In this document: positions 443-62,396 of the stretch, one piece after another | Numbering within the stretch: position 1 is the stretch's first letter | How the letters are laid out: every line of letters begins with the position of its first letter | Source: a virus | Direction: 5' to 3' (one strand) | DNA length: 64,000 nt | Virus genome (UHGV): UHGV-1352914 | Made by a program: the position numbers and the translations under genes | The notes under the pieces: generated by a model | What the model saw: the letters and a program-made list of their open reading frames with translations, nothing else | Told to the model about the DNA's origin: nothing | The model's database searches: none

Positions 443-600
443 GCGGATTCCGGTGTGGGAGATATACCGTTTCCGTTGCGGGACGGGGGCATATTGTACT
501 GATTCCGTTGCTGGTGGAGGGGTCTGGCCGTCCGAAATATACCGATTCCGGTGCGGAAAGGGGTGAAAAGGTGTACATTGTGTACCGATTCCGTGAGGGG
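443..600 (+). repeat. Iteron-like direct repeats, 5 copies of ~16 nt 'ACCGATTCCGkTGCGG' spaced 25-45 bp apart
   Basis: Copies seen at ~443, 465, 497, 539, 583 (cggattccggtgtggg / taccgtttccgttgcgg / tactgattccgttgctgg / taccgattccggtgcgg / taccgattccgtgagggg). Confidence 0.55.
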
Positions 601-766
601 GTGGGAATCATGAATCCAAAGGAATCCAGATACCACCACGGTTTCCCAGGCTCCGGGGTTGCACGCGGCCCATAGTAAATAGTCGGGTCAAATTTTTTCC
701 GTGGGGTACGGGGGAGGGGAGGGGCTTCTGGGCATGTCGCTCCAACTGACGTGCGTCGTTGTCGGT

Positions 767-880
767 TGTCAAGCAAAATCGACACGGGGCCATTCCACGG
801 GTGGGATATACTTCTGGTCTGTTTTGGCCCTGTCTGGTCTACCTTCCATTTCTGCCAAGTCAAGCAAAATCGACACGGGG
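767..880 (+). repeat. 24-nt direct repeat 'GTCAAGCAAAATCGACACGGGGCC' x2 (767-790 and 856-880)
   Basis: Exact repeat seen in sequence. Confidence 0.6.
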
Positions 881-899
881 CCGTTTCGCGGGGGACGTA

Positions 900-1470
900 T
901 CGACCTAGAAGGCGGGGATAGGCTCTGGGTGGGTAGTTGTAGCGGAGGGAAGCTTGCGGCGCGTTCTAGGGCAGGACCCTCTATTAAATTTGGGCAAATT
1001 TACGAGAGTGTGACGGGGTATGTGTGGCGAGATGGTACATTGGTCATGAAACAGGAGATAGGGCACTACCCTCGACCAAATTTGCGCACGGCGGGCATAA
1101 TGCGATGGAGTATACTCCGCGCGGATTTGGTGGTAAAGAAAAAGCCCGCAGGTAGCTTGACGAGACTACCCACGGGCGTAACTATGGAAAATGCCTGTAG
1201 AAAAGAGAGTGTTTGCCCGCTCCTGTGGCATGCGGATTCCCCGCTTAGGATAGTCAGAAGCATTAGGCTTGGCTGGCTCGGTTGCCGTTCGGAGCGAACA
1301 GGTGTAACTTACCACATCAGACGAGAAAGTCAAGAGGAAATCGGCACGGACTGCGCTTTTACGAATTTAATCCAGTGTGGCGGGGTAGAAGGCGGGGATA
1401 GGCTCTGGGTGGGTAGTTGTAGCGGAGAGGGGATTGCGGCGCGTTCTAGGGCAGGACCCTCTACTAAATT
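900..1470 (+). repeat. Pair of ~90-nt GC-rich direct repeats (~900-990 and ~1383-1470: 'GAAGGCGGGGATAGGCTCTGGGTGGGTAGTTGTAGCGGAG...GCGGCGCGTTCTAGGGCAGGACCCTCTAyTAAATT')
   Basis: Near-identical segments with a few substitutions ~480 nt apart; spanned by a 280-aa ORF that is not protein-like (G/R/S-rich). Confidence 0.6.
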
Positions 1471-1622
1471 CATGGGATTTAGGATGGGTGCATACATCCG
1501 CGCGAGCACGTGCGGGAGAAGGCATAACAAAATAACACAATAACAGAGGATTGTCTTGACTTTTCGAGGGAGGCTGATAGTATACGGCCATCATCTCCTA
1601 GGTTGATGTTCCCAAGGCGTAG

Positions 1623-1666
1623 CCCTTCGGAGGTAGGCTTGTCCTGCTTCCGAAGGGTTTTTCTTT
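1623..1666 (+). terminator. Hairpin (9-bp stem cccttcgga/tccgaaggg, 17-nt loop GGTAGGCTTGTCCTGCT) followed by T-run
   Basis: Stem-loop plus tttttcttt seen in sequence; loop identical (1 nt difference) to loop of hairpin at 1756-1795. Confidence 0.55.
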
Positions 1667-1688
1667 GGCGAGGGGGTGTACAAAGTTC

Positions 1689-1716
1689 TTGACATTGGTA
1701 TAGGATTTGGTATAGT
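1689..1716 (+). promoter_or_regulatory. sigma70-like promoter TTGACA-N16-TATAGT
   Basis: Hexamers and spacing seen in sequence; drives short unit ending at terminator 1756-1795. Confidence 0.5.
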
Positions 1717-1722
1717 GGCTGT

Positions 1723-1795
1723 GGTTATTTGATAGGTGTGATGTATTCGTCATCGCCCCGGAGGTAGGCTCGTCCTGCTTCCGGGGTTTTCTTTT
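1723..1795 (+). ncRNA. Candidate small RNA (~70 nt) between promoter at 1689 and intrinsic terminator at 1756-1795
   Basis: Promoter, short non-coding transcript, terminator hairpin (ccccgga/tccgggg stem, loop GGTAGGCTCGTCCTGCT) + TTTTCTTTT; no ORF. Confidence 0.4.
1756..1795 (+). terminator. Intrinsic terminator hairpin + U-tract (3' end of candidate sRNA)
   Basis: 7-bp GC stem, 17-nt conserved loop, T-run. Confidence 0.55.
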
Positions 1796-1879
1796 ACCCA
1801 ATAGTCTCAAAATCGAAGTAAGAGATTGAGTGTTAAAACATAGGTAGGAAGGCTTTGAGGCTGTGGTGATTGCTCTCAA

Positions 1880-2450
1880 ATAATTAAGCCTAATGGTTTT
1901 ACCAATTTTAACACAGGTTCAGTTCTTCATAAGTCATTGAGAATCAGTAAAACTGTTTTCGCTAACACAGTTTAACAGAGGCTTAACAAGGGCAAAGTTA
2001 GGGTTAAGTGATTTAGACTAAACCGATTCTGAAATCCTAACGTTTAACAGCGATAACGTCCAAATATATATACGTATAGGGAGAACCCCTAAGCCCTTTT
2101 CTATAGAAAAAATGATTATAATATATATATATTATGTTATGTTATTTTAGAAAAAAGGAAGCTACTACCGTTTCACTATCAATCACTTATGACCTAACAA
2201 TAACTTTTTGACACCTCTGTTAGGCCGAACCCCCCGGAACCCCCGGATTCCACGGATTAACAGAAGCAAGTTCCTCATAATCAACGGACTTCTCCAATCC
2301 TAACATCCCTGTCAAAAACTTATCGACCGAGCAAAAACTCTGTTAGGGACTGTGTTAAAATGAGCAACCCCAATGGGTTACGACTACCACCAAATCGCGC
2401 CCAAACCATCCATTCTGCCAATCCTAACACAATAACAGACCACTATGACA
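1880..2450. repeat. Cluster of ~14 short 'yTAACAsAG' / 'CTGTTAG' repeats in both orientations, flanking an AT-rich tract
   Basis: taacacagg, taacacagt, ttaacagagg, ttaacaaggg, ctaacgtttaacagcgataacg, cctaacaataac, ctgttaggcc, ggattaacagaag, ctaacatccctgtc, ctctgttagggactgtgttaaaatg, cctaacacaataacagacc. Confidence 0.5.
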
Positions 2451-3311
2451 CAGTTTTTCGATTTTCACTTGACAACCGCGATTCGTGGTGCTATCGTGAC
2501 GGCGATGACAACCTCAAATATAAACCAGACCGTCGAAGACCATGTGAACCAGTTTGTGCTGGAGTACATGCTCTATCTCCATAGCTTCGAAGACGAGTAC
2601 CCTGTCGTAGGAGTATCCTCCCAGAACAGCCATTGTTGCGACACCCTCTACCTCGAAAACGATTCCCTCCCATTATATATACAGGGACCGGATAGTCGCC
2701 AGCTATCATCTACGCCATTGGTGGCTTTGCTTCAATATTTGGCAGAGCGGCCCTTCATCAGATTTACGCTTCCGACATTCTATCAACTCCTGACTACCGT
2801 ATATGGTTCCCCGGTAACCGAGACGCCGTTCAACCGATTGCTCCACGCAAGCGCGGTAGCCCTTGACATCGCGGATTCCGTGGATTCCGCGGGAGCCGTA
2901 TTCACCCTCGCACCCCGTGTCATGGACTTTGTACGGAACCTTCCCAAGAGCAAGGATATGGAGACCCTTAATCTGCTGGAGGAAAACTTCTCCATTCCCT
3001 CCCCCGTACCTCAAGGTCCTGCTTCCAACTCCTACTTCATCTATTGGGAACTCGTGCGGCAACTGACCACCGACACCGCGAGGCGGTTCCTGAAGGTGCT
3101 CCACTTCTCACAGGAAGGGAGACGTAGTCCCATAGGTATTCTCGCCCTCCATCGCCATGAGTTCAATTCTCACGAGGACCTCCTGTCCACCTTGCGCGAG
3201 ATGAACGAGAGGACACTTATTCAGTGGCCTAAAGAGGGCGAGAAGGAGAGCATGGAAGCCCGTATTGAAGAATTTGAACCCGTCTTCGCAACTATCGAAC
3301 CCAAGAAGTAA
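2445..3311 (+). CDS. Hypothetical protein (first gene after control region)
   Basis: 288-aa ORF, coding-like composition; no recognisable motif. Confidence 0.5.
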   Translation: MTQFFDFHLTTAIRGAIVTAMTTSNINQTVEDHVNQFVLEYMLYLHSFEDEYPVVGVSSQNSHCCDTLYLENDSLPLYIQGPDSRQLSSTPLVALLQYLAERPFIRFTLPTFYQLLTTVYGSPVTETPFNRLLHASAVALDIADSVDSAGAVFTLAPRVMDFVRNLPKSKDMETLNLLEENFSIPSPVPQGPASNSYFIYWELVRQLTTDTARRFLKVLHFSQEGRRSPIGILALHRHEFNSHEDLLSTLREMNERTLIQWPKEGEKESMEARIEEFEPVFATIEPKK

Positions 3312-3316
3312 ACCCT

Positions 3317-6208
3317 GTGTCAATACCAGAAACCAAACTAACCGTCGTCGGATTAACTAACGGACAGCTCACCTATGATAAGGATAAATTCCCCAATGCA
3401 GGGGGATGCAACCATCCGAATCAGGTGAACCTCGCGGACGTGGAGAGCTTTTTCTCCGCGCCCGCGAGGGCTAAAATTCAGCCCCAACTACGGCGTTGGA
3501 GGTTCTTTTCCACCATGTACGACATGAAGGAAGGCAGGGAGCCGCGGGTTTCTCTCCCCTCTCTCTTCACCCGTACCTATGAGAAGTGGGAAGGCCGGGG
3601 GTGGCTACCTTTGGTGAAGCGTGCCCTCCCTGCCTTCGTCCCCTCCGTCAAGTTCTTTGGTGCGCCCAAAGAGTTGGACGGCATGTACTTCTCCAATAAG
3701 AAGCAAGTCATGACCGATTTCTATTCATGGGAACATACTGGAATATTCGGGATAGATATTGACCGAGGCCATGACGGGAATACGGAGGATGCGGATGTCC
3801 TTCTCTCCACTGCCCAGTCCATTCTTCCCACTATTCCCGGATTCCTCTTCGCATATACCAGCCCCAGCGGCGGGATTAAGGCGTTGTTCCGTATTTCTGC
3901 TTCCTATACTCAAAGGCTCAACAACCCCAGTGCATCCACGGATTCCACGGATTCCGGGGATAAAACGGCGGCCGAGGTTGCCGAGGAACTGCTGGACAAG
4001 CGTATCCTTCTCCATAGTGCCATCTACCATTATATCGCGGAGACCGTGGAATCCCGCACGGGCCTTTTTACGGACCCTCGATGCGATGACCCCGCCCGTC
4101 TCCAATACATCTACTGGGGACAGTACATTGCGCCGCTGGGGGATGAATCTCCGTACTTTACTCTGCCTTCGGACACGGAGGAACTGATTGCCAAGTATGG
4201 TAAGAAGAAAGCCCCGCGAACTCGCTCCTGCAACCGTGAACTGCGCGAAGGCGAAGCGTTGCCGCAAATATTCCGTGACTTCGCTAACTGGCTGGAGAAT
4301 AAGGGGCATGAGCAGGAGGCCACCACAGTGCGCGAGATGATTAAGACCAGACCCGACAGGAATAACCGTCTCTACAACTACTGCCCGTGTTGCAAGGACG
4401 TGTGCTCCAATGGCCGTCAGAATACGGACCTCATGTTGGAAATCAACTTGGACTTCCCTCTTCAATCTTTCTTCTTCTGCCTCCACGGCTCTTGTCAGGA
4501 CCGAAAGAAAGTGAAGCTCCCCATGCAGAAGTTGTGGAAGATATATACCACGGACCTCGAAGCCACGGAGAACTACGAAAGCGAATGCGATGATAAGAAC
4601 AGGTTGGTAGAGTATCCGTGGGCCAATTCCCTCCCGTTAATGGAGTGTGCCCAGCGAGGTCTTGACGTTAATAACCGAGGGACCGAGGGACTGCCCGAAC
4701 GTAGTGAAATTGACTACAATGGGTTGGCCTATCTCCAAGTGAAGAAGGACGGAACTCCTCGTGTTACGATTGATAACCTCCGCACCATGTTGCAGGGCCT
4801 CGGCTACCTCCCGGTGCGCAACTTGTTGCGTGATTCCAATGAGTTGCTCGACCTCAATACGGGCAAGTTCTATAACACGGACAAGGACACACTATCCACT
4901 CTCGCCACATGGTGGGAGAGACTTACAGATGGTACGCACACTCCGCTCAAGTATTTCTCCGACGCGTTCTACTCTCTATGCCCTCGTGCCTCCTATCACC
5001 CGCTGGCTACTCTCGTTTGTTGTAACGAATGGGATGGACAGGACAGGTTGTCCGAGTACTTGAGCCTTCTCCCCATGAATCAGGAGCACCCGGTTCCTCA
5101 AGCCCCGGAAGGCATGGAGCCGTTTACTCCCGACACATGGAGGAATGCAGTTCTTACTACGTGGCTCGTTACCGTATGGCGACGTCTTATCCTTCACATC
5201 ACGGGACGCGATTCCGAGATTCCGCAGAACTACATGCCCATCTTTGTTGGCCCTCCCGCTACGGGTAAGGACCAGTGGGTAGATAACCTCTTCGGGAATA
5301 TCAAGGGACTGATGACAGATATACAGGGCATGTCCTCCCAAGGCGTTGACCTCTCCATGCTTCTCTCCCAGTTGGTGGTGCTCAAGTGGTCCGAAGTGGA
5401 CCACATCCTCCAAGACCGCAAAATGAGTTCCCGTATTAAAAGGCTCATTACTTCCCATGCTTCTACGGACCGCAGGAAGTATGCGGAGAACTTGTCGGAC
5501 TTCCAACACATCGCCAGCTTCATTGGTTCCACTAACGATGACCAGCCGCTCATTGACCCCACAGGTAATCGTCGATTCATCCTCCTATACACGGGCTACC
5601 CTGAAACGCCGGAACGGGCTTTCGACGCTACGTGGGAACGAGTAGACCGTATGATGGCTATTGACAAGGTACAGCTTTGGGCACAGATTAAATACATCTC
5701 GGACCATGCCGGTCCCGGTGAATTTACGTGGAGGAAGCTTACCGACGTGTCGGAAGACTTCAACAAGGAGTATGGCGTTGACCTCGGTAGTGAAGAATAC
5801 CTCGCCAGCATGGTTCGTCCAGTCGATTACAAGGTGGATAAGACGAAAGATGGCTCGGACATTGTGAGGGCCTTCTATGAGCAGGTATCTACGCCCAAGG
5901 CTCTTCTCCGGTATATTAAGGCACAGCAACAGGACAAGGCCTTCCTCGACATCAAGGAACCCACGACATCCGAGACTAAATCGTTTACGAATGCTCTTGG
6001 AAGCGTTTACGCTAACTGCAATGTGAAAGTCAAGTTCACGGATTCGACGCAGATTGTGCGTAAGAACACCTCCTTCCGGCGCATGACCTACTTAATGGTA
6101 GATGACTGGTTGAGGGTTTTGGATGCGGAATCTAAGGAACGATGGTATGCAAGATTCCCTGACTGGGAAGAACAGGACAAACAACGCCGAGAAGTAATGG
6201 TAGGATAG
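3317..6208 (+). CDS. Primase-helicase: AEP-family PrimPol N-terminal domain fused to SF3/D5-like helicase
   Basis: AEP motifs 'IFGIDIDRGHD' and 'SPSGGIKALF'; Cys cluster CPCCKDVCSNG...CLHGSC; Walker A 'VGPPATGKDQW'; apparent GTG start. Confidence 0.75.
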   Translation: MSIPETKLTVVGLTNGQLTYDKDKFPNAGGCNHPNQVNLADVESFFSAPARAKIQPQLRRWRFFSTMYDMKEGREPRVSLPSLFTRTYEKWEGRGWLPLVKRALPAFVPSVKFFGAPKELDGMYFSNKKQVMTDFYSWEHTGIFGIDIDRGHDGNTEDADVLLSTAQSILPTIPGFLFAYTSPSGGIKALFRISASYTQRLNNPSASTDSTDSGDKTAAEVAEELLDKRILLHSAIYHYIAETVESRTGLFTDPRCDDPARLQYIYWGQYIAPLGDESPYFTLPSDTEELIAKYGKKKAPRTRSCNRELREGEALPQIFRDFANWLENKGHEQEATTVREMIKTRPDRNNRLYNYCPCCKDVCSNGRQNTDLMLEINLDFPLQSFFFCLHGSCQDRKKVKLPMQKLWKIYTTDLEATENYESECDDKNRLVEYPWANSLPLMECAQRGLDVNNRGTEGLPERSEIDYNGLAYLQVKKDGTPRVTIDNLRTMLQGLGYLPVRNLLRDSNELLDLNTGKFYNTDKDTLSTLATWWERLTDGTHTPLKYFSDAFYSLCPRASYHPLATLVCCNEWDGQDRLSEYLSLLPMNQEHPVPQAPEGMEPFTPDTWRNAVLTTWLVTVWRRLILHITGRDSEIPQNYMPIFVGPPATGKDQWVDNLFGNIKGLMTDIQGMSSQGVDLSMLLSQLVVLKWSEVDHILQDRKMSSRIKRLITSHASTDRRKYAENLSDFQHIASFIGSTNDDQPLIDPTGNRRFILLYTGYPETPERAFDATWERVDRMMAIDKVQLWAQIKYISDHAGPGEFTWRKLTDVSEDFNKEYGVDLGSEEYLASMVRPVDYKVDKTKDGSDIVRAFYEQVSTPKALLRYIKAQQQDKAFLDIKEPTTSETKSFTNALGSVYANCNVKVKFTDSTQIVRKNTSFRRMTYLMVDDWLRVLDAESKERWYARFPDWEEQDKQRREVMVG

Positions 6209-6251
6209 TAAGCGAGTTACAACTTCCTCAAAAATTTCTTCCAAAAACTTC

Positions 6252-6279: not shown

Positions 6280-6364
6280 GGCCCTGTCACCGGGATTCCG
6301 GGGCAGGGCCAATTCCCTTCCCGCCAATCCCTCCAGAATACAAACAAGCAAACCCGCAACAAAC

Positions 6365-6676: not shown

Positions 6677-6677
6677 T

Positions 6678-30137: not shown

Positions 30138-30141
30138 AAAA

Positions 30142-34026: not shown

Positions 34027-34083
34027 TCCCACGGAACCCACGGAACCCACGGCCAAATGGCCACAATGGGTTCCGTGGGTTCC
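34027..34083. repeat. Intergenic palindromic array: (CCCACGGAAC)x2.5 ... 17-nt spacer ... GGGTTCCGTGGGTTCCC
   Basis: Seen in sequence; ~50 nt upstream of promoter at 34137. Confidence 0.65.
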
Positions 34084-34164: not shown

Positions 34165-34171
34165 AGCGGGC

Positions 34172-47800: not shown

Positions 47801-50800
47801 CTCCAGTCCAAACTCTTGAACAGAAGATGGCCAGATGGAGAAGCAAGCCGTGGGCTGAAATGAATACCAAGGAGAAGACGTTTGCCGTTGCTTCCTATTT
47901 GTACAGCACGAGCATGGCCGCAGTGGAAGGAGCCACCGAAGAACTGGCAGACGAATTCCAAGAGTGGGCATTTACTGAACTGGTGAAGAACGGAGAAATC
48001 TCCGAATCCTCTATTGCCACTACTGACCAAGTGATTAGCGGTGCTATAAAGACTGCTTTCCTTGGGGGTATCGGCGGCTACGTTGGTAGCCAGTTAGCTG
48101 GTGAAGGGAACATACGTTTCCAAACCGAAGCCGCTCCCACCCTTGATGTAAAGGATGCTACTTCCATACTACCGGATATTACGAAAGATGCGAGCAACAT
48201 CATCGAGGAAACGGGCAAAGCCATTACCAAGGATAATGTACCGGAAAGCTTGGTAGAAACCGGAAAGAGGGTTATCGAGATTGCCGGGGAGAAGGGGGAT
48301 GCCGCGGAAGTTGCCCGCGAATGGGTGGACAAATCCATTGCCCATGAAAGTCTGGCAGTCTCCGATGAAACCCGCAAGGCATGGGTGGAAGGCGCAACCC
48401 GTATGGGCATCAGCAATTTCACCCAGTTCCGCAACCTAGTTGAACGGGCCTCCGAAATATATACCTACGAGGGTAGTGCCGCGGCAAGCTCATTCATGGC
48501 AGAAGCCATTAACGACCTGCCCAATACCCTGTCATTCCCAAATAAGGAAAACCTCGACACCATGCGCACCATGCTTTCGGAGGCCCTTGATGCTATGGGA
48601 GACAGGGTTCAGGTTATCGAAGTAGACGACGACCTGTCCATCATTACTACAGGGGACGAGGACCTCGATGCCGCTCTTCACGTCATTAACGGATTGACGG
48701 AACCCACGGCTACCACGGAACCCAAGGAATCCCCGACTACCGCGGAACCCACGGCTACCGCGGAACCCACGGCTACCGCGGAACTCACGGCGCGGAAGGA
48801 GAGGGACCAAGCCATTGCCCCCGTCACTAACATGGTAGATACGGGAGTAGTTACCCCCGAAGCCGTGGAAACCGTGGATACCTTGGATGCCGCCATTACT
48901 TCGTTCGACCCCAACACTGGGGCATGGCTTTCATCCGGTTCACCTCTTGACCGCGGAACCAAGCTCGTCTCCTTGAACGAGATGACCGGGATTAACGCCC
49001 CGCTGGTTACGAGCAACACGGGAGAAACCATTGTCGTCTCTCCGCACGCAAGCATGTACAACATGGGTGAGGGAGGGACACCCAGCACCAAGTGGGGGGA
49101 TAGGGTCTCCGCTCTCAATCTCCCCTCTGACGGGACGGGCGTAAATGCCTACGGCATCCTTTCGGACCTTCGCGTCAAGGCATCTCCTGCACAGGCCGCG
49201 GCCATTGACGGAGTGCTCCGCGCATTGCATGCCGCTGGTTTGGACGTGGCTATCCGAGCCACCAATGCTCCTGCCAATATAGCCTCCCCCGCCAGTATCA
49301 CGTATAAGAACGGAACAGACGGGAAGCTCGTCGGCGGCGTCATTGACCTGTACATGGACCGGGACAATGTGATTGAGAGCGTAACGGGAACAGTACTGCA
49401 TGAGGCCATCCACCTCATTGACCGTCATCTTCGTGCCACTAACGCGGACTACTCCCAGCGGATGGACAAGATTAGAAGCGCAGTTGCGGAGAACTATAAT
49501 CAAATCATTGATAGCCTCACTGCTATGTATGAAGCTAGCGTGGACATCAATGAGATGAATGCCATCGCCGCGCTTGCCTCCGACCTCAACTATGGTCTCC
49601 GTGGCCCGGACGAATTTGCCAGTGTTGCGTTCTCCAATCCTGTCATGAACTTCATGATTGCGGAGGTGAGCGGAGACAATGTAACCCTCACGGATTTGGC
49701 TCGCTATGCCGAAGCGGCTGGGGGCAGGAGACCCGTTCATGTGCGCCTCATTGAATGGCTTAAGGATTTGATTAGGGATGTGCGGCAAACTGCGGACGAC
49801 ATGGATGGAACCACCGCCGCCAAGAATGCGGCTGAATGGGATTCCTATGTGGACCGCGTCGCGGACATAACCCCCGGCAAGTGGTTCGACATGCCTCGCA
49901 CTCCGTCATGGAAAGTAGACGATACGGACTACACCATGAGCCGTGAGGTAGATTATTTTAACCCGTTGGCCTATGAGACCGACATGACCCAAAGACTGTC
50001 CTTCGGTCTGGGCGCAGAGATTATCGGTACGAATGCCGGGAACTGGGTAACCAGTGTTAAGAACGTATGGCAAGGCGTGTCTAAGGGCTGGGACAAAGCT
50101 GGCATCAATGTTAAGTCCGAGGAACAGAAGCTGATTGTGCTGGAACAAATGACCAACGTGAATGCGGCGTATGAACGCAGTATTAAACGCATTGGCAAAA
50201 TCGGCGATATGCTTCAACGCCGTGCGGATAGTCTGGGCTGGGATGCCACGACGCGAAAGAAATGGAGCAAATCCATTCTCGATATGTCGGGGAATATGGA
50301 CAACGATATTGACCCTGAAACTGTTGCACGCATTAACGCAGAGGCCCAAGCAGAAGTTCGCCAGCACGAACAGACCCGCGACTTCCGTATCGCGTTGGCT
50401 AAGAAGACCGTTACCGATGCCGTCAATAGGCACGCGGAAGCGGTGCGTCTGGCCAACTCCCTTGCGCTTAATAGTGAAGGGCGATTGGAAATCAATGAGA
50501 TGATGCGCCGGATTAAAGACATGAGCGTCAAGGGATATGGTGCTATGCTGGACAAGACGGTGGCTCTCCCCATGCTCTCCCAGCAGATTCACAATGTGCT
50601 CTCTGACCTTGGCTCTCGTATCTCCGCGACGGGGGATGCCAATCTGGAAACCACCTACTTTGGCCTCGCCCGTGATACGCAGAACTACCTTGCGGATATG
50701 ATTAACGAGGTGGACAGTCCCTTCTCTATGGATGAACTTCTGGACAGGTGGTCCAACCTTCGCAACGACTACCTCTATGCGGAGAGTACAAACCACCCCG

Positions 50801-53800: not shown

Positions 53801-54534
53801 TCCCGGCAGTAGGCAACGCAATCCTGTTGGCCGCAGGACTGAACCCCTCGTTCGGCAGTGGACATACATGGCAAGTCCTTGAACGATTCGCGACGGTTGC
53901 CAATAAAAAGATTCCCTTCTACGGCTGGGCAGTCAAGTCAGGTAAACAAGCGTTTAGCGATACACCTGACATGAGTGGCGCGGCATACGGGTTACAGTCC
54001 TTGGGTGCGGGCCTCCGTCGTCCGAAGGATTTGACCGAAGCCCTTGCCGCCGGGTTAAAGAATGCCAACGCGGCGGTCACTAAGTCGAAGCGAATGAGCA
54101 TTCTGCGTCCGGACTTCTACAAGAGAATGGAATCCGGGATGGATGTGGAACTCATGGAAGCCGTGGAAACCGCGGATGCCGTGAAGAATTTCACCAAGCT
54201 AGTCAATAGTGTCCGGTTCGTTACGGAAATTACAAACATGCTTGACCCGTCCATCCGTTCGGAAGTTCTGGCCTCCGTGATTGAGAGTTCCGGTATGAGT
54301 GCCAAGACCTACGGCGCGGCCATGCAGGGCATCATGCCCTACGTCATTAGCCCGCAAGCAGGACGTGAAGCTATCGCGAAGCTCAACCGTGAATTGCAGA
54401 AGTCTAATACCACGGACGAGGGCAAACGCCTAATCGAAGAGCAGAAGCAACTCATTATCAACCTCATGCGGAAGGGTAGCATTCCGATTGATGGGGCATT
54501 GAGTACAGAGGAAATTCATAATCGGATGAAGTAG
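44869..54534 (+). CDS. Giant virion/ejection ('polyvalent'-type) protein, 3221 aa, with zincin-like HExxH motif
   Basis: Single uninterrupted ORF; mostly helical/low-complexity; 'GTVLHEAIHLIDRH' HExxH; linker repeats 'EPTATAEPTATAE'; no DxDGD RNAP motif seen. Confidence 0.75.
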   Translation: MAIDFSTANMSDFAPTSASSIAREQRAAERHATWQETQKQKQEDRAQKALDREQRLAEKKQTRAEKAAGATAEFDDYVFKSIDDFQKKQTEQADRARNVEWETKSRAHTEQGWKTTAEKADIDVLNKGNRGFTFEGIDYMKDYVDRGEDALVDLKAAARGDSDAIKKLTNNTGIVAVSSSELSPQHPAFLSRFGFGMGEDGNPVVTEKFLAIAADRNRNAKAVAKSIANTMEKARKDYLNSHLDVGTGKPKAEAIETAPIAYTAEEIESIINTIRREDIDNYRAAKSLYTKHRAASTENVQKKTPSQTNVGELGVGEFSDSAPSFTGNVFAELANLSKSPSKMFRLVRDYGDYLSRNGDIYIPGHQTSKKEKPVEDRIREQIEAADKIVRRLEEDYTGLPYLELRDAILNPEAAASTLLSLVPNADMDAIRARAEVLAKDLRRKKDRPLTFETDEQIGMSEAILEAVATRFPGVPKSTLYQAGVTNLIQGYVAKATPRGTLMDAVNGAMANYRSTAGQIADVLTFQPGDSVGKTSDPLSTMEWRKGTRRGTWEYGVPGGPSFDVGPERLKEYMAQYHIESTRDALNSLSHAARMGDLGVGRGSLFAYNPHTKEVDTNATLELNPNALYDNKLMDKSIEALRASGADEGLINRTIEKFQNLRTKSAQELVKDNIALDETLGTLRDTWLGSGMRFNPVWTETMKHLDKYLSFKNFYNEQKEAGKSDEDILSAWQEKGQAHINPILRGFQIGTHKAIDLGTGAAYGALLFAQNAVGSRAAMEHTRTLWDQLNKKQEAEAELVRGNIIADYTAEIANLGYQMVATAGAGKIGGLAGRALERTALTKFARAMANVAARRAEALVPAARPGLAGRLSGTIQRNLNNLAALSLERAGAGAGVNLTIISQVAPNAYSDIFYTIYDREMEGKEATAENTNRAQSIASRHALFGAALVSTGSTLINNRAGMDSFMRKVVGAKNLRGQSPVQTLEQKMARWRSKPWAEMNTKEKTFAVASYLYSTSMAAVEGATEELADEFQEWAFTELVKNGEISESSIATTDQVISGAIKTAFLGGIGGYVGSQLAGEGNIRFQTEAAPTLDVKDATSILPDITKDASNIIEETGKAITKDNVPESLVETGKRVIEIAGEKGDAAEVAREWVDKSIAHESLAVSDETRKAWVEGATRMGISNFTQFRNLVERASEIYTYEGSAAASSFMAEAINDLPNTLSFPNKENLDTMRTMLSEALDAMGDRVQVIEVDDDLSIITTGDEDLDAALHVINGLTEPTATTEPKESPTTAEPTATAEPTATAELTARKERDQAIAPVTNMVDTGVVTPEAVETVDTLDAAITSFDPNTGAWLSSGSPLDRGTKLVSLNEMTGINAPLVTSNTGETIVVSPHASMYNMGEGGTPSTKWGDRVSALNLPSDGTGVNAYGILSDLRVKASPAQAAAIDGVLRALHAAGLDVAIRATNAPANIASPASITYKNGTDGKLVGGVIDLYMDRDNVIESVTGTVLHEAIHLIDRHLRATNADYSQRMDKIRSAVAENYNQIIDSLTAMYEASVDINEMNAIAALASDLNYGLRGPDEFASVAFSNPVMNFMIAEVSGDNVTLTDLARYAEAAGGRRPVHVRLIEWLKDLIRDVRQTADDMDGTTAAKNAAEWDSYVDRVADITPGKWFDMPRTPSWKVDDTDYTMSREVDYFNPLAYETDMTQRLSFGLGAEIIGTNAGNWVTSVKNVWQGVSKGWDKAGINVKSEEQKLIVLEQMTNVNAAYERSIKRIGKIGDMLQRRADSLGWDATTRKKWSKSILDMSGNMDNDIDPETVARINAEAQAEVRQHEQTRDFRIALAKKTVTDAVNRHAEAVRLANSLALNSEGRLEINEMMRRIKDMSVKGYGAMLDKTVALPMLSQQIHNVLSDLGSRISATGDANLETTYFGLARDTQNYLADMINEVDSPFSMDELLDRWSNLRNDYLYAESTNHPAIAPMIQDISRARAEAKQIIREANDDFHAATKRAGVTRAGVTTPAGSVWLKRDNAILDARRQKQAEYMAKRDAAEQWLLSQGVVGQLVHNVIADSRKEIAATQISIAKLIGDSRMANNAAEMNYLHRTYMAVGRHAGDFTRTMKDIIAHPNGELAQKYDGLTKLLQEAAIAHAEAHQTELSENISQVLDNMQALAALHDELKLPLVSAPTGASSNYKLLFEGVAKNYRTREILDFIQNNFGRVQMLADLRDGHNISAMYNKAMSMIAQADYRTKSKMAEMKETLDMKARDSFLADVFSSLPGNTIADKIGGLESPASVASEVNKAIPTIPTSAIDQIWNAPNMNAAERLDKTLNLLRGQAGILMGANNMGNVISATDLKVLQYPELSRLAVNDAMKAIDEVLTKKRTNEDALAQRKRLPEWQRKAMYELSDLTIGDAIGTLQNTISMQSKIAVNQLLADEYATVLKAQGVVVPPDSASRTPDMVEISLKNTKNALNGLYADKDVADALYHIYRPSDDIMNSRTDDYKKVRKYWQKSGKGQEWWSKAGGLANLSVLIASPNSTLRNLYGTVAQMTHAGALPFTGSKDIANLVGDWVQLRKLWWLSQGKDLGSQASADRLLAAEDRYNEKIRYWQELGLLDAGQGEFLRNVWKSDEFSKMAGEFEEVNEDSFFKLAEALNEKQERTKGEVAKDAAKMAGKVVAWPVKTMAFAYGLPDAAAKIVLFTNQRAIADTQLKVQLARAKGKANPNARDQILLDASQTDQSWNAYVDRYTAHMVKSLLPTGSRTPSWVKTLNIVAAPFFMFQYHTAQSVVYNLGHAIGEGVDGVWAINNGMKKEGAYLLGRAFVRIAGSVGTISATSAVSSWVARQIITSVLGDDDDRKIIDDAEVMRKLADSGLIPDYDKFGDLIGIIDMKRHEFEYLNLEYMNPFKTIKVLAKTLPSLFMDMDVDKWGMNKVAELKNLLENTVLEESLLLNAASELFNEEDFNYKHSLSGDESVNVLPAVGNAILLAAGLNPSFGSGHTWQVLERFATVANKKIPFYGWAVKSGKQAFSDTPDMSGAAYGLQSLGAGLRRPKDLTEALAAGLKNANAAVTKSKRMSILRPDFYKRMESGMDVELMEAVETADAVKNFTKLVNSVRFVTEITNMLDPSIRSEVLASVIESSGMSAKTYGAAMQGIMPYVISPQAGREAIAKLNRELQKSNTTDEGKRLIEEQKQLIINLMRKGSIPIDGALSTEEIHNRMK

Positions 54535-57764: not shown

Positions 57765-59742
57765 TTGTGATTGATGGATTAAGCATTTGCATGAATTCTT
57801 CTTCTGTGATTGAAGGAATCTTGTGGAGCTTCGCTATCTTTTGCTTATGTTCTCCGGGTTCCTTACCGACAACTAGATAGTTGGTCTTCCTTGACACGTT
57901 CTCCTTGACCGTGCCTCCCATGTCCTGAACGAGCAGGTTATATACATGGCGAGGCTGGGACAGGATTCCCGTGATGACGAAGTTCACACCCTTTAAGGCC
58001 GTGCTCTTTGGTACATTGCCTTCGACATTAGGGATGTCTCCCGTCATAACCATTGTCGTCATCTCATTCCACGTAGGCACGGTCTCCATGTAGTTCAGAA
58101 TTGCCTCGGTCATCAGGGGGCCGAACTCCGCATGACGCTTGCTCCTTAAATCTTCGGGGAAGAGAGTAAGGAACGTGTAGAGATTGGGGTACATGCGGGA
58201 GAGATTTTCCGCACGGGTACTACCGACATGAGGAATCTCCATTGCAGTAATCCATTGAGCAAGAGACGCATGGTGCTTCCGTTCCTCCACGATTTCAAGG
58301 AATCCCCGGTATCCTTGGGTTCCGGGGATTCCGTTAATGAGATTGTCCATCATGCCGGACATGAGAAGCAGGAACGGGTGATGGAGGTAAGCAGTCTGCG
58401 CCGTCGGCGGTTCCACATCAGCCTCTCCCTTGATTAGTTTGTCCGCAATCATGCGAGAGAATACGAGGCCCATGCCGTCAATATCCAGTGCGTTCTTTCC
58501 GCATGCGTATTCCAGCTTGGCCGCTACCTTATCCCTGCACAACGGATTGATGCAGAAGGTGTCGAGGCCACAAGAGTATAGAGTGGAGCCGCAACATGGA
58601 CAGGTCAGAGGGACAACGGAATCCGTATTGCCACAGCCGCGAACCTTGCGGACATAGGGGATAATCTCTCCTGCCTTAACCACCTCCACGGTATCCCCGA
58701 TATGGAAGGACGCCGCATTGGATGCGTTGGAGAGGGAGGCACGGGATACATTGGTTCCACCAATCTTCACCGTATCAAATACCGCAACCGGGGTAAGAAC
58801 TCCGGTTCTGCCTACTTGCCAAATGACATCCCGGAGGGTAGTCTCTACGCCCTGCGGGTTGAACTTAAAGGCTACCGCGTCCTTCGGGTGATGGGCAGTA
58901 GCCTCCCCTGCCGCGGCAATGGCGTTCTTCTGGTTCAACTTAAACACAATACCATCAGTAGGATAGGCGATGTCGTCACGCAGGTACTTGGCCATGTCCC
59001 GGATGCATTCATCCGTCAGGGCTTCGCCTTCTGGCCATTCATTGGGAAGGGTTACGAGGTCAAACATTTCCATCAGCCATCCATGCAGTTCCATGCGGGA
59101 TTCAATCCCATCCGGCATGGGGCTTGCATCAAACGGGATGAAGGTAATGAGCCAGTCAGACCACTTGAGATTATTATTTCGGAGTTGACCAACGGCACAG
59201 GCGCGGAGGTTGGAGTACCCCATGCTTTCCACCCGCCCCTCTTCACTCTTAGCTACAACCACTTCCCCACGGATAGCTCCCGTATAGTTCCCATAACTTG
59301 GTGGGACCATATAGAGAACCTTATCAAGGGGAATGACCTCCCCCTCGGTTCCGTTGCCACGAGTAACGGCACGAACGAGCCGCCCATTTTCGATGTACAG
59401 AACGAGGGTAAGGCCATCATACTTCGGTTCAACCACGACATCCCTCCCCGCAACCCAGCCTCGAAGCTGGTCCATGCCAATCCCATCCTTGCCCTCATGA
59501 ATCTTGGCGAGAGACAGGACGGGATTGGGATGCCGGAAGGTCTTGGCTCCGCATTGTACGTCGTCCCCTAGGCTATCGAGTTCCTTGGATTCCGGGGAAC
59601 GGGAACGCAGTTCTTCAACCAGCGTATCGTAAACCGTGTCGGGGAGAAGGGTTTTCCCTTCGTGGTAGTAGGAGCTATTGAAGATAGCAATCACTTCTTC
59701 CAACTCCATCACGCTCGTGTTTTTAGGATTGCCTATTTCCAT
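57745..59742 (-). CDS. ligA: NAD-dependent DNA ligase
   Basis: 'EPKYDGLTLVL...RGNGTEGE' adenylation site, Zn finger 'CPCCGSTLYSCG...CINPLC', C-terminal BRCT-like 'YLVVGKEPG'. Confidence 0.9.
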   Translation of the reverse strand: MEIGNPKNTSVMELEEVIAIFNSSYYHEGKTLLPDTVYDTLVEELRSRSPESKELDSLGDDVQCGAKTFRHPNPVLSLAKIHEGKDGIGMDQLRGWVAGRDVVVEPKYDGLTLVLYIENGRLVRAVTRGNGTEGEVIPLDKVLYMVPPSYGNYTGAIRGEVVVAKSEEGRVESMGYSNLRACAVGQLRNNNLKWSDWLITFIPFDASPMPDGIESRMELHGWLMEMFDLVTLPNEWPEGEALTDECIRDMAKYLRDDIAYPTDGIVFKLNQKNAIAAAGEATAHHPKDAVAFKFNPQGVETTLRDVIWQVGRTGVLTPVAVFDTVKIGGTNVSRASLSNASNAASFHIGDTVEVVKAGEIIPYVRKVRGCGNTDSVVPLTCPCCGSTLYSCGLDTFCINPLCRDKVAAKLEYACGKNALDIDGMGLVFSRMIADKLIKGEADVEPPTAQTAYLHHPFLLLMSGMMDNLINGIPGTQGYRGFLEIVEERKHHASLAQWITAMEIPHVGSTRAENLSRMYPNLYTFLTLFPEDLRSKRHAEFGPLMTEAILNYMETVPTWNEMTTMVMTGDIPNVEGNVPKSTALKGVNFVITGILSQPRHVYNLLVQDMGGTVKENVSRKTNYLVVGKEPGEHKQKIAKLHKIPSITEEEFMQMLNPSITNEKDSD

Positions 59743-59980: not shown

Positions 59981-59994
59981 AATTCAAATGTGGT

Positions 59995-60594
59995 TTATGC
60001 TTCGTGGGGCAGGATAATTTTACGGGTGTTGGCTTCCTTTTCTGCGAGTTCGGATTTGTCCACGAAGGTGAGGGTGGAATGTTCCATTAGGCTCATGGAT
60101 ATTACGTTACTTGCCACGGAGAAGAGACGGAATGCGGAGATGCCTCCCTTCTCTTCATCGAGGCGGTCCGGGTCATTCTTACTGGCATACGCTACCAAGA
60201 TGTGAATGGCCATGAAGAGGACGAGGGCCTTAATCATGACATGGGAATCGGTAAAGATATTGCATGCCTTGCCGGGGTTCTCAAGCTCCTGCATAAAGGC
60301 AATGTATTCCTTTACAGTGACGAGGTTCTTGGCGACTTCTCCCATGATGAACTGAACACCAGCCAGCGGCGGGGGTTCAATATCAAAGATGTTGGAGGCG
60401 TAGTCTCCTAGTTCAATAGCCTTCTCGGCAACCGCGTCCGCGGACGCATCAATGGGCAGGTTGAAGGCAGGGACTGCATCCCACTCCCGTTGCAGTCTTT
60501 CCTTCAACATGACAGACTTCGGTTCGGCGAGAATGCGGGCTACCTCTTCCTGAATAGAATCGAGGCTCAATTTGTTTGGTTCTGTAGTGTCCAT
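59995..60594 (-). CDS. Hypothetical protein
   Basis: 199 aa. Confidence 0.45.
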   Translation of the reverse strand: MDTTEPNKLSLDSIQEEVARILAEPKSVMLKERLQREWDAVPAFNLPIDASADAVAEKAIELGDYASNIFDIEPPPLAGVQFIMGEVAKNLVTVKEYIAFMQELENPGKACNIFTDSHVMIKALVLFMAIHILVAYASKNDPDRLDEEKGGISAFRLFSVASNVISMSLMEHSTLTFVDKSELAEKEANTRKIILPHEA

Positions 60595-60616
60595 GTGCGT
60601 ATAATAGTATTTGGGT

Positions 60617-60841
60617 TTAATTATTTGTCCACGAAGATTGTTGCGAAAATTGTGACAGCAGAGAAAGGAGTTCGTCCTTTGCGTCCTCTTCGCTATATTG
60701 GGGAGAGGTGGCGAGGTGACAGCTTATGCATTCCCAATAAGGGGCGGGTCTCCATTCCCGTTCATAGTCGTCATAGTAATAGACGTCATTGCTTAGCCTC
60801 ATGAGGCTTCCGCACAGAGGGCATTCATATTCTGGGTCCAT
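60617..60841 (-). CDS. Small zinc-ribbon protein
   Basis: 'CPLCGS...CISCH'. Confidence 0.45.
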   Translation of the reverse strand: MDPEYECPLCGSLMRLSNDVYYYDDYEREWRPAPYWECISCHLATSPQYSEEDAKDELLSLLSQFSQQSSWTNN

Positions 60842-60858
60842 ACTTCTTTCTGGATTTA

Positions 60859-61395
60859 TTACTTGTCAAGCTCTGTTTCTTCGTCTCTGTCTATCTCGTT
60901 CAGGAGATTGCAGAGGCGTCCCATTTTGATTGTTCCCTCCCATGAAGGAACGATGTGTAGGGGCTGGTTCTCCTTGAAGTCCCAAAGAACTCCGTCGATA
61001 ACTTTGAACCGATGATGCAGGTCTATCGGCCTAATGAGAAGGAGGGAGGAAGTGTTGACTACTTTCGATGCTCCTGTTCTTTCATCCTTAACGCTGATAA
61101 GACTGGAATCTGTCTCGTCTTCCGTTACAATCCATGTACCTTTTCGGTCTTTACAAATCACCACGTCCCCCGTCTTAAACTCCCGAAGAGGTGCGGGGTA
61201 ACATTTGATTGCCTCTTCATGACGGACAACTCCCTCACCCGGAGGGAAAGAATTTATGACCTTGTATCTGTAGTGGTGCGGGGAAAGTTCGATTACCTGC
61301 CCCACGTAATACTGTTTGTCCAGTTCTCTGACAATGTAGTCACCGGGGTCGATAGCCTCGTCGATAAATTTTTGCAAGTCTTTGGGTTCTAACAT
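60859..61395 (-). CDS. Hypothetical protein
   Basis: 178 aa. Confidence 0.45.
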   Translation of the reverse strand: MLEPKDLQKFIDEAIDPGDYIVRELDKQYYVGQVIELSPHHYRYKVINSFPPGEGVVRHEEAIKCYPAPLREFKTGDVVICKDRKGTWIVTEDETDSSLISVKDERTGASKVVNTSSLLLIRPIDLHHRFKVIDGVLWDFKENQPLHIVPSWEGTIKMGRLCNLLNEIDRDEETELDK

Positions 61396-61438
61396 ATTCT
61401 TGATAGAAGTGGTTATAACTTTTAGGATTTCGTTTGGG

Positions 61439-62011
61439 TTAAACTCTCAAATTGCATTGGAAGGAACCTTTGTGGAGCGAGAGGATTTCCTCATTGGACA
61501 GGGTCCCCATGTTCAGCCGCATGGCGTCGGGAGCCATCGTCAAAATGGGAGTGCCTTCAATGGACCGGGGGAAGGACATCTTGGTGGCGAGAGCTAGCGA
61601 GGGGCGGGCCTTAAACATAGCGTCGTAAAGTGTTTCGCTATACCTGACGGCAGAATGTCCTCCGAGATAAATTTCGGTAGCATACATGCAATCCTTGCCG
61701 CGCTTCTCTTTAGGGTAGTCGAGCCGGAGGATGCGCACCGAGTGTTCCACGTATGCCTTCAGGTCATAAAGTGTGCGGATGATGAAGTGGGTGTCGGTCA
61801 TAGTTACCTTCCCGATTCCAAAGGCTTCAATCAGGGACTTGGTCCGGGCAGACTGGAGACTATTATCCTCCGGATTCCGTGGAATATAGAGTTCAGCGGG
61901 TGTCTTGGAGGGAAGGATAATAGTATCCCAAAGTTCCCCGGTGCTTCCTCCGTTATTTCTGGTCCAAGAATGAAGGAGCATGAGTTGTTGAGCGAGTGCG
62001 AGGGGTTTCAT
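61439..62011 (-). CDS. Hypothetical protein
   Basis: 190 aa; preceded by conserved upstream element. Confidence 0.45.
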   Translation of the reverse strand: MKPLALAQQLMLLHSWTRNNGGSTGELWDTIILPSKTPAELYIPRNPEDNSLQSARTKSLIEAFGIGKVTMTDTHFIIRTLYDLKAYVEHSVRILRLDYPKEKRGKDCMYATEIYLGGHSAVRYSETLYDAMFKARPSLALATKMSFPRSIEGTPILTMAPDAMRLNMGTLSNEEILSLHKGSFQCNLRV

Positions 62012-62045
62012 AATCGTTTGGTTTTTGTAGGGCTAGGTGTGGATT

Positions 62046-62396
62046 CTAGATGTTAAGTTTCCAGCGGAGAGTTTGATACCCGGCTTCCGTGGGTTCCGTG
62101 GGTGGCTCAAGGTATAAGAAGATTCCTTTACGATTGACGACAACGGTTGCGCTATCCGGACTAAAGGCAAGTAGATAGACATGAAGGTATCGGAGGACAT
62201 CCTCATGGGGGAGCCTATAGGTACGAAGCGGATAGTTCTGTTCAATCATCCTTCTAAGCTTAGTAAGCTTCTTTAGTGCCGACTTCCTAAGGACCGCAGT
62301 CACCGCAAGGCCTCCAGCACTTCCAGCAAGTTTTGACAGAGCAAAGTCCGAATCATTATCGGTATCAATTTGTGAGGTGAATAGAGTAATTTCCAT
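62046..62396 (-). CDS. Small protein, paralog A (C-terminus ...LRWKLNI)
   Basis: Shares 'RTYRLP...GIFLYLE...L(H/R)WKLNI*' with 62425-62763. Confidence 0.5.
   Translation of the reverse strand: MEITLFTSQIDTDNDSDFALSKLAGSAGGLAVTAVLRKSALKKLTKLRRMIEQNYPLRTYRLPHEDVLRYLHVYLLAFSPDSATVVVNRKGIFLYLEPPTEPTEAGYQTLRWKLNI

Follow-up and report, generated by a model that had tools for sequence, protein, structure and literature searches.

Why does one short DNA word recur across a whole viral genome, in intergenic arrays as well as inside genes? The question is raised by a window of 64,000 nucleotides (64 kb) from the virus genome UHGV-1352914, in which an initial annotation had picked out the octamer TTCCGTGG/CCACGGAA as recurrent and ascribed it to a protein that binds specific DNA sites throughout the genome, or else to a modification or restriction-avoidance motif. 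The enrichment is real, lineage-specific and located at the level of DNA, and its defining property, overlooked at the outset, is a strict 9-bp phasing. We tentatively interpret the word as a unit that a protein recognises and binds cooperatively, at an origin of replication or a region controlling early genes, with slippage and short-patch conversion having spread the copies. This is the reading of the sequence that we favour and still consider doubtful, and a repeat family that propagates itself without any binder is nearly as likely.

A dispersed word with 9-bp phasing

Exact copies of TTCCGTGG/CCACGGAA number 17 in the window, compared to 2.87 ± 1.61 in dinucleotide shuffles, none of which (0/100) reached 17. 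With at most one mismatch allowed the count rises to 145 (60.5 ± 7.7 expected), and the 25-30 copies originally estimated fall between these two values. The fuller site GGRTTCCGNGG occurs 23 times (13 copies on the + and 10 on the - strand), where Markov models of orders 1, 3 and 5 predict 0.4, 1.0 and 2.5 copies. We also utilized a codon-preserving shuffle, in which synonymous codons are permuted such that every protein sequence and the codon usage are kept. Here ~5 copies were expected and none of 600 shuffles reached the 23 observed; since four of the ~5 are fixed intergenic copies, ~1 coding copy is expected compared to 19 observed. Ranked against this null, the most enriched 6-, 7- and 8-mers in the window are without exception parts of the motif, for instance CCACGG (104 vs 54 expected), GGATTCC (44 vs 19.5) and GGATTCCG (20 vs 5.1). 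The enrichment reported initially thus survives every null model applied, and the statement that annotated genes do not explain it extends to amino-acid sequences and codon usage.

The orientation-free core GGRWYCC is present 84 times (52.5 ± 5.8 expected). Adjacent cores lie 9, 18 and 27 bp apart in 11, 5 and 3 pairs, compared to 3.1, 0.19 and 0.17 expected, with no pairs at other spacings, and a position matrix built from the 23 sites shows GG and CC repeating every 9 bp across ~5 units. The unit is GG-NNN-CC-NN, forming tracts (GG-NNN-CC-NN)n, or equivalently CCNNGG plus an A/T-rich triplet; within it the heptamer GG-(A/G)(A/T)(T/C)-CC is followed by a 2-nt spacer. Because the unit is pseudo-palindromic, its occurrence on both strands is in part built into the pattern. 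Tandem Repeats Finder and a repeat finder detected many tracts of the motif family with periods of 9, 18, 27 or 36 (Table 1), which contain at least 34 in-register copies and share nothing except the word itself. A comparison of repeat families found no longer identical patch and no common flank between tracts, ruling out copy-paste of larger segments. Among the positions first listed, those at 2876, 30197, 34029/34038/34071, 38438/38474, 43053, 61875 and 62085/62094 hold exact copies, and those near ~2244, 3938 and 27948 proved to be variants. A literature search for the motif string returned just primers and unrelated matches.

The window comes from a metagenomic contig of ~70 kb (ENA ERZ27229845 k119_266606), ~6 kb of which lies beyond it, and is circularly permuted, the leftward genes running on upstream of position 1 (own-contig coordinates, L001). 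Megablast of the window against deposited phages returned no nucleotide-level relative, and no cultured relative was found; the best tblastn match of the large terminase (TerL) is 27% identical, and GTDB species representatives held no relative of the phage. IMG/VR contains dozens of relatives of 60-70 kb, with TerL identities in bands of ~96%, 85-89% and 57-60%.

A control region of ~2.8 kb, from L001 ~1860 to window position 2444, is dominated by the word and lies between divergent gene modules, the early genes (ThyX, ligase) reading leftward on one side and the replication/structural genes lying on the other. Its open reading frames (ORFs) 394-675 and 701-1543 show substitutions without codon-position periodicity and many indels among relatives, and the region is therefore truly non-coding. 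In order, it contains a leftward early promoter, an (CCCCGGTATCCGGTT)x2 array, (TA)7, the palindrome GTTCCATGTGGAAC and three GGATTCCGGGG copies joined to the word GGTGCAAT, followed by the inverted pair at 313-395, the five spaced repeats at 410-607 and G-rich runs; the TA tract has CCCCGG-type units on its left and CCGGGG-type units on its right. Arrays adjoin (TA)7-9 tracts and a conserved palindrome in this genome (L001 1880-2140) and in relatives alike, which bears out the original link between the motif and an origin- or control-like non-coding region with short repeats beside AT-rich tracts. The iteron-like repeats at 443-600, which had been said to carry the core, contain no exact octamer; these repeats vary by indels among relatives and hold the motif as variants with one or two mismatches (ATTCCGGTG, TTTCCGTTG and similar).

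In relatives this locus is a patchwork of perfect tandem arrays, different in nearly every strain, with examples such as (GGGGGAACC)5-7, (GGATTCC)5, (GGGGAATCATGGATACC)3, (GTTGAACCC)n, (CCGATTGC)n and (CCACAA)n. Unit length (7, 8, 9, 10, 16-17 or 27 bp) varies together with copy number. Perfect arrays such as (GGGGGAACC)x5, (GGATTCC)x5 (a contiguous 7-bp array, in relative L277) and (GGGGAATCATGGATACC)x3 lie ~70 nt upstream of the leftward early promoter; (GGGGGAACC)n has no exact GGRTTCCGNGG match and belongs only to a broader GG-N3-CC-N2 family of period 9. Many relatives' contigs end within these arrays, whose hypervariability explains why assemblies of the lineage break at one locus. The G-run GGGGTACGGGGGAGGGGAGGGG (699-724) would be prone to form a G-quadruplex on the + strand, as would the (GGGGGAACC)n arrays.

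Some 18 dispersed tracts lie within genes, in several frames and on both strands. With position 6293 counted as 5' untranslated region, 18 of the 23 11-mer copies are intragenic; the coding GGRTTCCGNGG copies occupy three frames, 8 in sense and 11 in antisense orientation. Most encode linker-like, low-complexity peptides that depend on frame and strand (DSV/DST/DSA, TEP/AEP, GSV and others), and it is thus the DNA, not the peptide, that is shared. The copy at 13273 is explained by its protein sequence, since it encodes a RuvC motif. An alternative primase allele that is 30% identical contains (GGATTCCAC)x3 in the loop equivalent to 3934-3960. Two classes of element were rejected for the dispersed copies. 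A repetitive extragenic palindrome (REP) or bacterial interspersed mosaic element (BIME) is at odds with the intragenic majority and the lack of a transposase family in the protein scans described below, and coding low-complexity tandem repeats are at odds with the several frames, both strands, different peptides, the excess over the single copy expected and the existence of non-coding copies.

Site intactness was counted in relatives fetched without bias. Copies at 6293 (20/20), 28277 (21/21), 30197 (21/21), 34029/34038/34068 (17-22/22), 58317 (23/24) and 59587 (25/25) are nearly always intact despite variable flanks, and among them the coding copies 28277, 30197, 58317 and 59587 do not vary even at the third base of codons. 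Turnover affects another set: 17693 (0/52), 12406 (10/27), the 48.7-kb cluster (7-10/18), 62091 (0/6) and 3949 (0/3). Third-position conservation of the coding copies is bimodal. Indels at tracts comprise whole 9-bp units (9 bp at 3938, 18 bp near 12406, 9 or 18 bp at the 30249 array), and the 30248-30292 array varies in length and sequence. Relatives carry copies of their own, at ~21345 in 14/48, at ~30885 in 11/11 and at 145 places in unalignable linkers, such that motif density is kept although tract positions turn over. By type, 78% of TTCCGGGG, 52% of TTCCGTGG and 45% of TTCCGCGG copies are kept, some of the TTCCGGGG copies being terminator arms.

Relatives with ~90% and ~74% nucleotide identity share the word. 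In the ~74% clade tracts occupy other genes (exonuclease, polymerase, a portal-sized gene) at equal protein length, and hence formed in place by clustered substitution or conversion and not by insertion. Clades with a 57-60% identical TerL contain no copy, period-9 tract or analogous word in the 22 kb flanking TerL; GGAAGTTC and CCTTGCTC, considered as diverged counterparts in distant clades, are ordinary coding words explained by their sub-words.

Two non-coding sites are hairpins. The stem-loop at 6280-6310 (dG -27.6 kcal/mol, z -5.9) is maintained in relatives by a double change from T-A to C-G through a T·G intermediate. The inverted array at 34027-34083 forms a 17-bp stem (34033-34083, z = -5.2); it follows the variable gene 33224-33976 at a mosaic junction, with P34137 lying 55-110 nt further downstream. 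The former could serve as a 5' stem-loop and the latter as a terminator- or processing-like hairpin. The gene 33224-33976 (250 aa) is present in only 2/25 relatives, and the invariant array forms the edge of this variable cassette.

Candidate readers and competing explanations

In the account that we tentatively prefer, the control-region arrays, adjoining (TA)n and the conserved palindrome, would be the home of the word. A dimeric DNA-binding protein would bind neighbouring units cooperatively, at the replication origin and/or early promoters, much as the contiguous-repeat operators of pSM19035 (PMC9499535) or the iterons of SaPI origins (PMC9371898) are read. Slippage-prone arrays and short-patch conversion or template switching between tracts would then seed copies elsewhere, and these would persist where tolerated, in linker-like segments of any frame or strand, or where useful as arms of RNA or DNA hairpins. 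The enrichment, its phasing and independence from coding, the hypervariable arrays, the turnover of positions, the clade restriction and the hairpin conservation are shown here, and from them we infer protein binding, origin function and the mechanism of spreading. The initial proposal of a site-specific protein with many targets stands as the most plausible single reading, with no binder found in protein scans.

Which protein might read the word? The product of gene 2445..3311 (+ strand; gp2445), with its weak winged-helix-like fold, had been put forward, and is disfavoured because relatives lacking it keep the motif. The replication module (window 1590-6826; relatives L275-L277) is mosaic among genomes otherwise ~90% identical: the primase-helicase allele of relatives is either 93% or ~30% identical to that of the window, and gp2445 is missing with the alternative allele. 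Relatives with a 96%-identical TerL fall in this second group and retain the motif in the control region as well as within the alternative primase gene. The two alleles have diverged uniformly except for the last ~20 residues, which are nearly identical, and no conserved DNA-reading domain is found between them; with array types independent of allele, the C-terminal domain of the primase-helicase was rejected as a reader of the kind known from Staphylococcus aureus pathogenicity islands (SaPIs). A reader concealed in the control region was likewise rejected, as ORFs 394-675 and 701-1543 are non-coding by their substitutions and match no Pfam family. Of the two helix-turn-helix (HTH) proteins proposed at 31379-32205, just one, gp31852 (31852..32205, + strand), gives a weak winged-helix, lambda-O-like signal (E ~1e-4 to 4e-3, below the Pfam cut-off; the PHROG match is to 'replication initiation O-like'). 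It is clade-restricted and present, at ~80% identity, in both replication-module groups, and its structure model (pLDDT, a per-residue confidence score, of 47) is unusable. Among phage products gp31852 alone remains as a candidate, and the reader could also come from the host.

Several results weigh against a protein that reads the word. Pfam and PHROG scans of ~60 of the ~70 proteins returned no ribbon-helix-helix (RHH), HTH or Rep family above threshold; nor did they return a ParB, partition ATPase or transposase, a methyltransferase or restriction function, or a repressor or integrase family, most proteins having no family match and ~6 kb lying beyond the window. Sites keep no fixed offset from promoters, most copies being intragenic and without orientation bias. 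While direct repeats beside an AT-rich element occur here and in relatives, as in an iteron origin, the array types of the control region do not co-vary with the replication-module allele, relatives without gp2445 having the same words and array types, and repeat number and spacing are not constant in the lineage; the word therefore fails as a classical iteron. Unit length and copy number differ even between near-identical strains, as would not be expected under a strict constraint on architecture. Pooled third-position conservation of coding copies (0.825 vs 0.752 in GC-matched controls, p = 0.10-0.16) is not significantly above the controls. Finally, the best-conserved non-coding copies are parts of hairpins with one compensatory change, and their conservation is explicable by structure without a protein.

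Much of this would also be expected of a binder-free, minisatellite-like family of 9-bp repeats that grows and shrinks by replication slippage, is spread and homogenised by short-patch gene conversion or template switching, persists where copies are neutral, in protein linkers and non-coding DNA, and has had a few copies co-opted as hairpin arms. This explanation is itself doubtful and nearly as likely as the one we prefer. It accounts well for unit-sized indels of 9 and 18 bp between close relatives (3938, 12406, 30249), for the extreme polymorphism of the control-region arrays, for coding tracts (38430, 48.7 kb, 62091) that are among the least conserved segments, and for tracts arising in place by clustered, conversion-like substitutions; it needs no binder, none having emerged from the scans, it agrees with the independence of the motif from the replication-module allele, and hairpin structure accounts for the conserved non-coding copies. 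However, slippage alone cannot place one word at 18 or more unlinked loci on both strands, isolated single units included, and the shared flanks or longer identical patches that would document conversion are lacking. Several isolated coding copies are invariant at synonymous positions, and dispersed direct repeats of 17-23 nt should be counter-selected in a recombination-proficient phage unless useful. The origin-like setting of the arrays, beside (TA)n and a conserved palindrome, also counts against this explanation.

Selection by a machine acting on DNA genome-wide could take other forms. A virus-specific 'genomic dialect', in which every part of the chromosome carries the word, proteins absorb it as linkers in any tolerated frame, and a machine of the lineage keeps it through a sequence-specific transaction at many sites, is unlikely. 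Such a system would be the viral counterpart of the drive behind uptake sequences or Chi, as opposed to an ordinary origin or operator, and its function could be, for example, a self-marker distinguishing phage from host, multi-site loading for replication restart or recombination-dependent replication, or condensation before packaging. We consider it somewhat less likely again that a host machine recognises the word, in the manner of an uptake signal, Chi, a nucleoid protein or a self-marker for evading defence. Such recognition would fit the inverted pairs that make terminator-like hairpins, the copies lying in several frames within poorly conserved parts of genes, the density kept despite turnover, the independence from replication-module alleles, a clade restriction that could mirror host range and a second dispersed octamer, CCTTGCGG (17 vs 4.2). 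Against it, GTDB species representatives hold no relative of the phage. A genome scan for two-unit sites gave, among the at least 120 matches listed, for the most part long (GGGTTCCGG)n arrays within genes of unrelated high-GC taxa and, among those matches, no candidate host with many dispersed copies, a weak test given that two tandem units were required. Tandem 9-bp phasing and hypervariable arrays are moreover foreign to Chi and uptake sequences, and there is no strand bias. Membership of the Chi-type hotspots was rejected on grounds of phasing, pseudo-palindromy and balanced strands, and a DnaA box, to which (CGTGGATAC)n units match at 7/9 positions of TGTGGATAA by eye, was dropped as most units (CCCCGG and CCGCGG types) do not fit.

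The word might alternatively supply microhomology at domain or gene boundaries for the shuffling of modules and domains. Two tracts do coincide with homology breakpoints (34026-34081 in 20/22 and 62088-62104 in 23/24 relatives), gp33224, beside the 34027 array, occurs in only 2/25 relatives, and some tracts occupy inter-domain linkers. Nevertheless, identity jumps at tracts are no larger than at controls (median abs(dID) 0.043 vs 0.036, p = 0.40), alignment breaks are marginal (p = 0.052), most tracts lie within uniformly conserved genes and the control-region arrays would go unexplained, making recombination joints improbable. An artefact of Pro/Thr/Glu/Asp/Ser linkers combined with biased codon usage is refuted by the shuffle of synonymous codons and by the distribution of copies over frames and strands, and we give it hardly any weight. 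Most coding copies are indeed linker-like, and in other organisms the unit forms long (PEP)n/(PGT)n coding arrays; yet ~1 coding copy is expected where 19 exist, frames and strands differ, the peptides are unrelated, and at least five copies as well as the densest arrays are non-coding.

If a protein does read the word, it would define how the origin or early control works in a widespread, wholly uncharacterised ~70-kb phage lineage, known from dozens of near-complete metagenomic genomes with almost no annotatable genes, and would extend the small group of systems built on contiguous short repeats by one with 9-bp phasing. If the word is merely a self-propagating repeat family, it cautions that strong k-mer enrichment in a phage does not alone imply a binding protein. 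The genome provides a natural example of a DNA-level constraint shaping protein sequence, one word giving DSV/DST, TEP/AEP or GSV by frame and strand and occupying the matching loop in both primase alleles, which are just 30% identical. The hypervariable arrays could be used as strain markers.

Other features of the window

Positions are collected in Table 1. Most of the remaining window proteins match no Pfam or PHROG family, and the window contains no known RNA family (Rfam) and no tRNA. A Shine-Dalgarno sequence is missing from almost every gene, and leaders are rich in A and C (e.g. starts 13253, 34160-34172 and 16303). Promoters look sigma-70-like, and several with consensus sequence stop 5-10 nt short of the ATG, which suggests leaderless mRNAs and a potential hint at the host.

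Table 1. Positions of word copies, repeat tracts and genes in the window
Feature	Position	Strand	Context
Inverted pair ATTGCACCCCCGGATTC / GATTCCGGGGGTTCAAT	313..395		Control region; 17-nt arms, 88% complementary
Five same-orientation repeats TACCGATTCCGKTGCGG..GGGG ('iterons')	410..607	+	Control region; spacings 55, 32, 43, 43
Exact TTCCGTGG, then G-run GGGGTACGGGGGAGGGGAGGGG	697..724	+	Control region; intact in 5/5 relatives
Four 9-bp units AACCCCCCGGAACCCCCGGATTCCACGGATT	2228..2258	-	Intergenic tract, ~190 nt upstream of gene 2445
Tandem GGATTCCGTGGATTCCGCGG	2873..2892	+	Midpoint of gene 2445-3311; encodes DSVDSA, predicted loop
(TCCACGGAT)x2.3 tract	3934..3960	+	Primase-helicase gene; encodes STDSTDSGD; relatives differ by one 9-bp unit
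Hairpin with GGATTCCGGGG in apical part	6280..6310	+	~+1 of promoter P6252
Single copy (TPEPN)	12406..12416	-	Gene 12294-13106; 18-bp indel nearby
Copy encoding RuvC-type 'DPGTHG' motif (DPGxxG)	13273..13283	-	
Copy made by one synonymous change	17693..17703	-	Missing in 52/52 relatives
GGATTCCGGGG	28277..28287	+	Gene 27987-28379
CCGGAATCCACGGAACCC	30188-30207		Gene 30073-31191; encodes (DTV)n
Perfect (TGGATACCG)x5 array	30248-30292		Gene 30073-31191; encodes (DTV)n
Inverted array, three units + GGCCAAATGGCC centre + two units	34027..34083		Intergenic; invariant in 17-22/22 relatives
Tract PEPTVSVGPMDVPETTGSVGPVESP	38424..38499	+	Endolysin linker; hypervariable among relatives
Single coding copy	42469..42479	+	Gene 39963-42887
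Three-unit tract, near-palindrome GGATTCCGTGGAA	43035..43063	+	Gene 42892-43635
Period 9/18 tract (ACGGCATCCACGGGAACG)x3.2	44071..44163	+	Gene 43638-44765
Period 9/18/27 tract cluster (AEPTATAEPTAT...)	48698..48892		3221-aa gene; copy number varies in relatives
(TGGAAGCCG)x3.2 tract	54155..54183	+	Close to end of 3221-aa gene
Four-unit tract	58298..58333	+	NAD-ligase gene, antisense to gene
Copy TTCCTTGGATTCCGGGG	59581..59597	+	Ligase gene
Near-palindrome CCGGATTCCGTGGAAT	61872..61882	+	Gene 61439-62011; 11-mer intact in 17/24, exact 8-mer in 0/24 relatives
GGCTTCCGTGGGTTCCGTGGG	62082..62103	+	3' end of gene 62046-62396; homology breakpoint in 23/24 relatives
Period-9-family tracts	3935, 30248, 34028, 38424-38499, 44104-44163, 48699-48892, 54155, 62085		
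CCTTGCGG/CCGCAAGG	11647, 13587, 15013, 17007, 17163, 20084, 23373, 28655, 37477, 41778, 47508, 48372, 50688, 57100, 58644, 62303, 63494		
ATAATTTTGTAGGGCTATGTGAGGTTTCTA-like boxes	62013-62048, 62392-62427, 62759-62794, 63139-63174, 63778-63813	+	
VapE/D5-type primase-helicase	3317-6208		Pfam/PHROG scans
Family-A DNA polymerase	7767-9686		
Helicase, PDDEXK exonuclease, RuvC-like resolvase, HNH protein			Encoded in window
TerL	13772-15607		
Endolysin	38319-39083		
3221-aa protein			Encoded in window
ThyX	56819-57490		Leftward module
NAD-dependent ligase	57745-59742		Leftward module
DUF3310			Leftward module

A second, unrelated word, CCTTGCGG/CCGCAAGG, occurs 17 times compared to 4.2 expected in the codon-preserving shuffle, together with the related TGCGGAG (26 vs 8.9) and ATGCGGAG (13 vs 2.2). 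All 17 copies are intragenic and isolated, on both strands and without conserved flanks, and this suggests an octamer of the Chi, uptake or modification type rather than an array of binding sites. Dispersed repeats containing CTTCCGTGGATTCCGTGGGTTCCGTGGC, two to three units of the 9-bp word within a larger repeated element, lie ~190 nt apart and apparently in non-coding DNA in unrelated high-GC metagenome-assembled genomes from soil Gammaproteobacteria (L151 1158-1556, L152 4827-5060, L155 2796-7300).

The control region also holds two paralogous mini-cassettes of promoter plus terminator (P1556 with terminator 1621-1659, P1689 with terminator 1755-1787), which could be small RNAs; no Rfam family matched them or the rest of the region. 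An 85-nt direct repeat (906-990 and 1386-1470, 94% identical) and two highly conserved blocks (1051-1100 and 1151-1200) are found there too. A ~36-nt box resembling ATAATTTTGTAGGGCTATGTGAGGTTTCTA stands directly upstream of each of five small leftward genes, ~370-640 nt apart, and may be a promoter or translation-initiation element of a paralogous early-gene family. Two other in-frame tandem repeats in coding sequence fall outside the motif family: a 36-bp unit x3.7 at 30747-30878, in gene 30073-31191, whose product has a Lar-like zinc-ribbon C-terminus, and an 18-bp unit x3.8 at 21518-21585 (GACGAAAACCAGAACGAC, encoding DENQND) in gene 21239-22468. A 32-nt inverted repeat (32331-32362/58418-58449, 94% complementary) links gene 32214-32648 with the ligase gene, 26 kb apart, and has the same sense orientation in both.

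Comparison with known repeat systems

SaPI Pri-Rep origins consist of 5-6-nt iterons on both sides of an AT-rich centre and are served by self-loading primase-helicases; the iterons lie directly downstream of rep and are specific to the winged-helix C-terminal domain of Rep (PMC9371898). The phage resembles them in its very short repeats around an AT-rich centre, with opposite polarity on each side, and in encoding a VapE/D5-type primase-helicase. Its arrays, however, lie ~2.5-3.3 kb upstream of the primase-helicase gene and do not co-vary with two 30%-identical alleles, while unit length and number are hypervariable, array composition is far less constrained and the word is dispersed genome-wide.

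The iterons of the lambda origin, each 19 bp long, sit inside the linker of the O gene. Similarly, a tandem motif lies in a predicted loop at the midpoint of gene 2445-3311, and gp31852 is a weak 'O-like' match; in contrast, gp2445 is dispensable for upkeep of the motif, only two units of 9 bp, not 19 bp, are present there and the word is dispersed throughout the genome. In Streptococcus thermophilus phages, collagen-like repeats flank the variable regions of receptor-binding genes, and recombination joints formed by the word would resemble them.

Operators of RHH proteins offer a further parallel. The metboxes of MetJ measure 8 bp. The omega/ParB system of pSM19035 uses contiguous heptads in any orientation, 2 to 7 or more units per site, which are read cooperatively (PMC9499535). 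Phage tracts comprise 2-5 contiguous 9-bp units, at least two per site, with an inverted arrangement at 34027-34083 and a 7-bp (GGATTCC)x5 array in L277. The period is nonetheless 9 bp and not 7-8 bp, most copies are intragenic, the scans contain no RHH protein or partition ATPase, and the region beside the arrays, where such a binder would be encoded, is non-coding.

Stoperators of Cluster A mycobacteriophages are tens of copies of one short, lineage-specific site genome-wide, some away from promoters; each is a single, asymmetric site that points along transcription, and the immunity repressor that binds it is known (PMC6550527, PMC9283540). The phage word is also short, lineage-specific, present in many copies genome-wide and not tied to promoters. 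Unlike stoperators it is pseudo-palindromic, tandemly phased and mostly intragenic, with 8 sense and 11 antisense coding copies and no repressor or integrase in the scans, and it fails as a stoperator because it lacks orientation bias.

The DNA uptake sequences (DUS) of Neisseria and the uptake signal sequences (USS) of Pasteurellaceae, including Haemophilus, occupy tolerant coding positions and form inverted terminator pairs. Here the bearer is a virus, and its 9-bp tandem phasing and hypervariable arrays set the word apart from both. In its distribution it nevertheless behaves like an uptake sequence, lying in tolerated frames and poorly conserved segments, forming inverted terminator-like pairs and keeping its density across the lineage.

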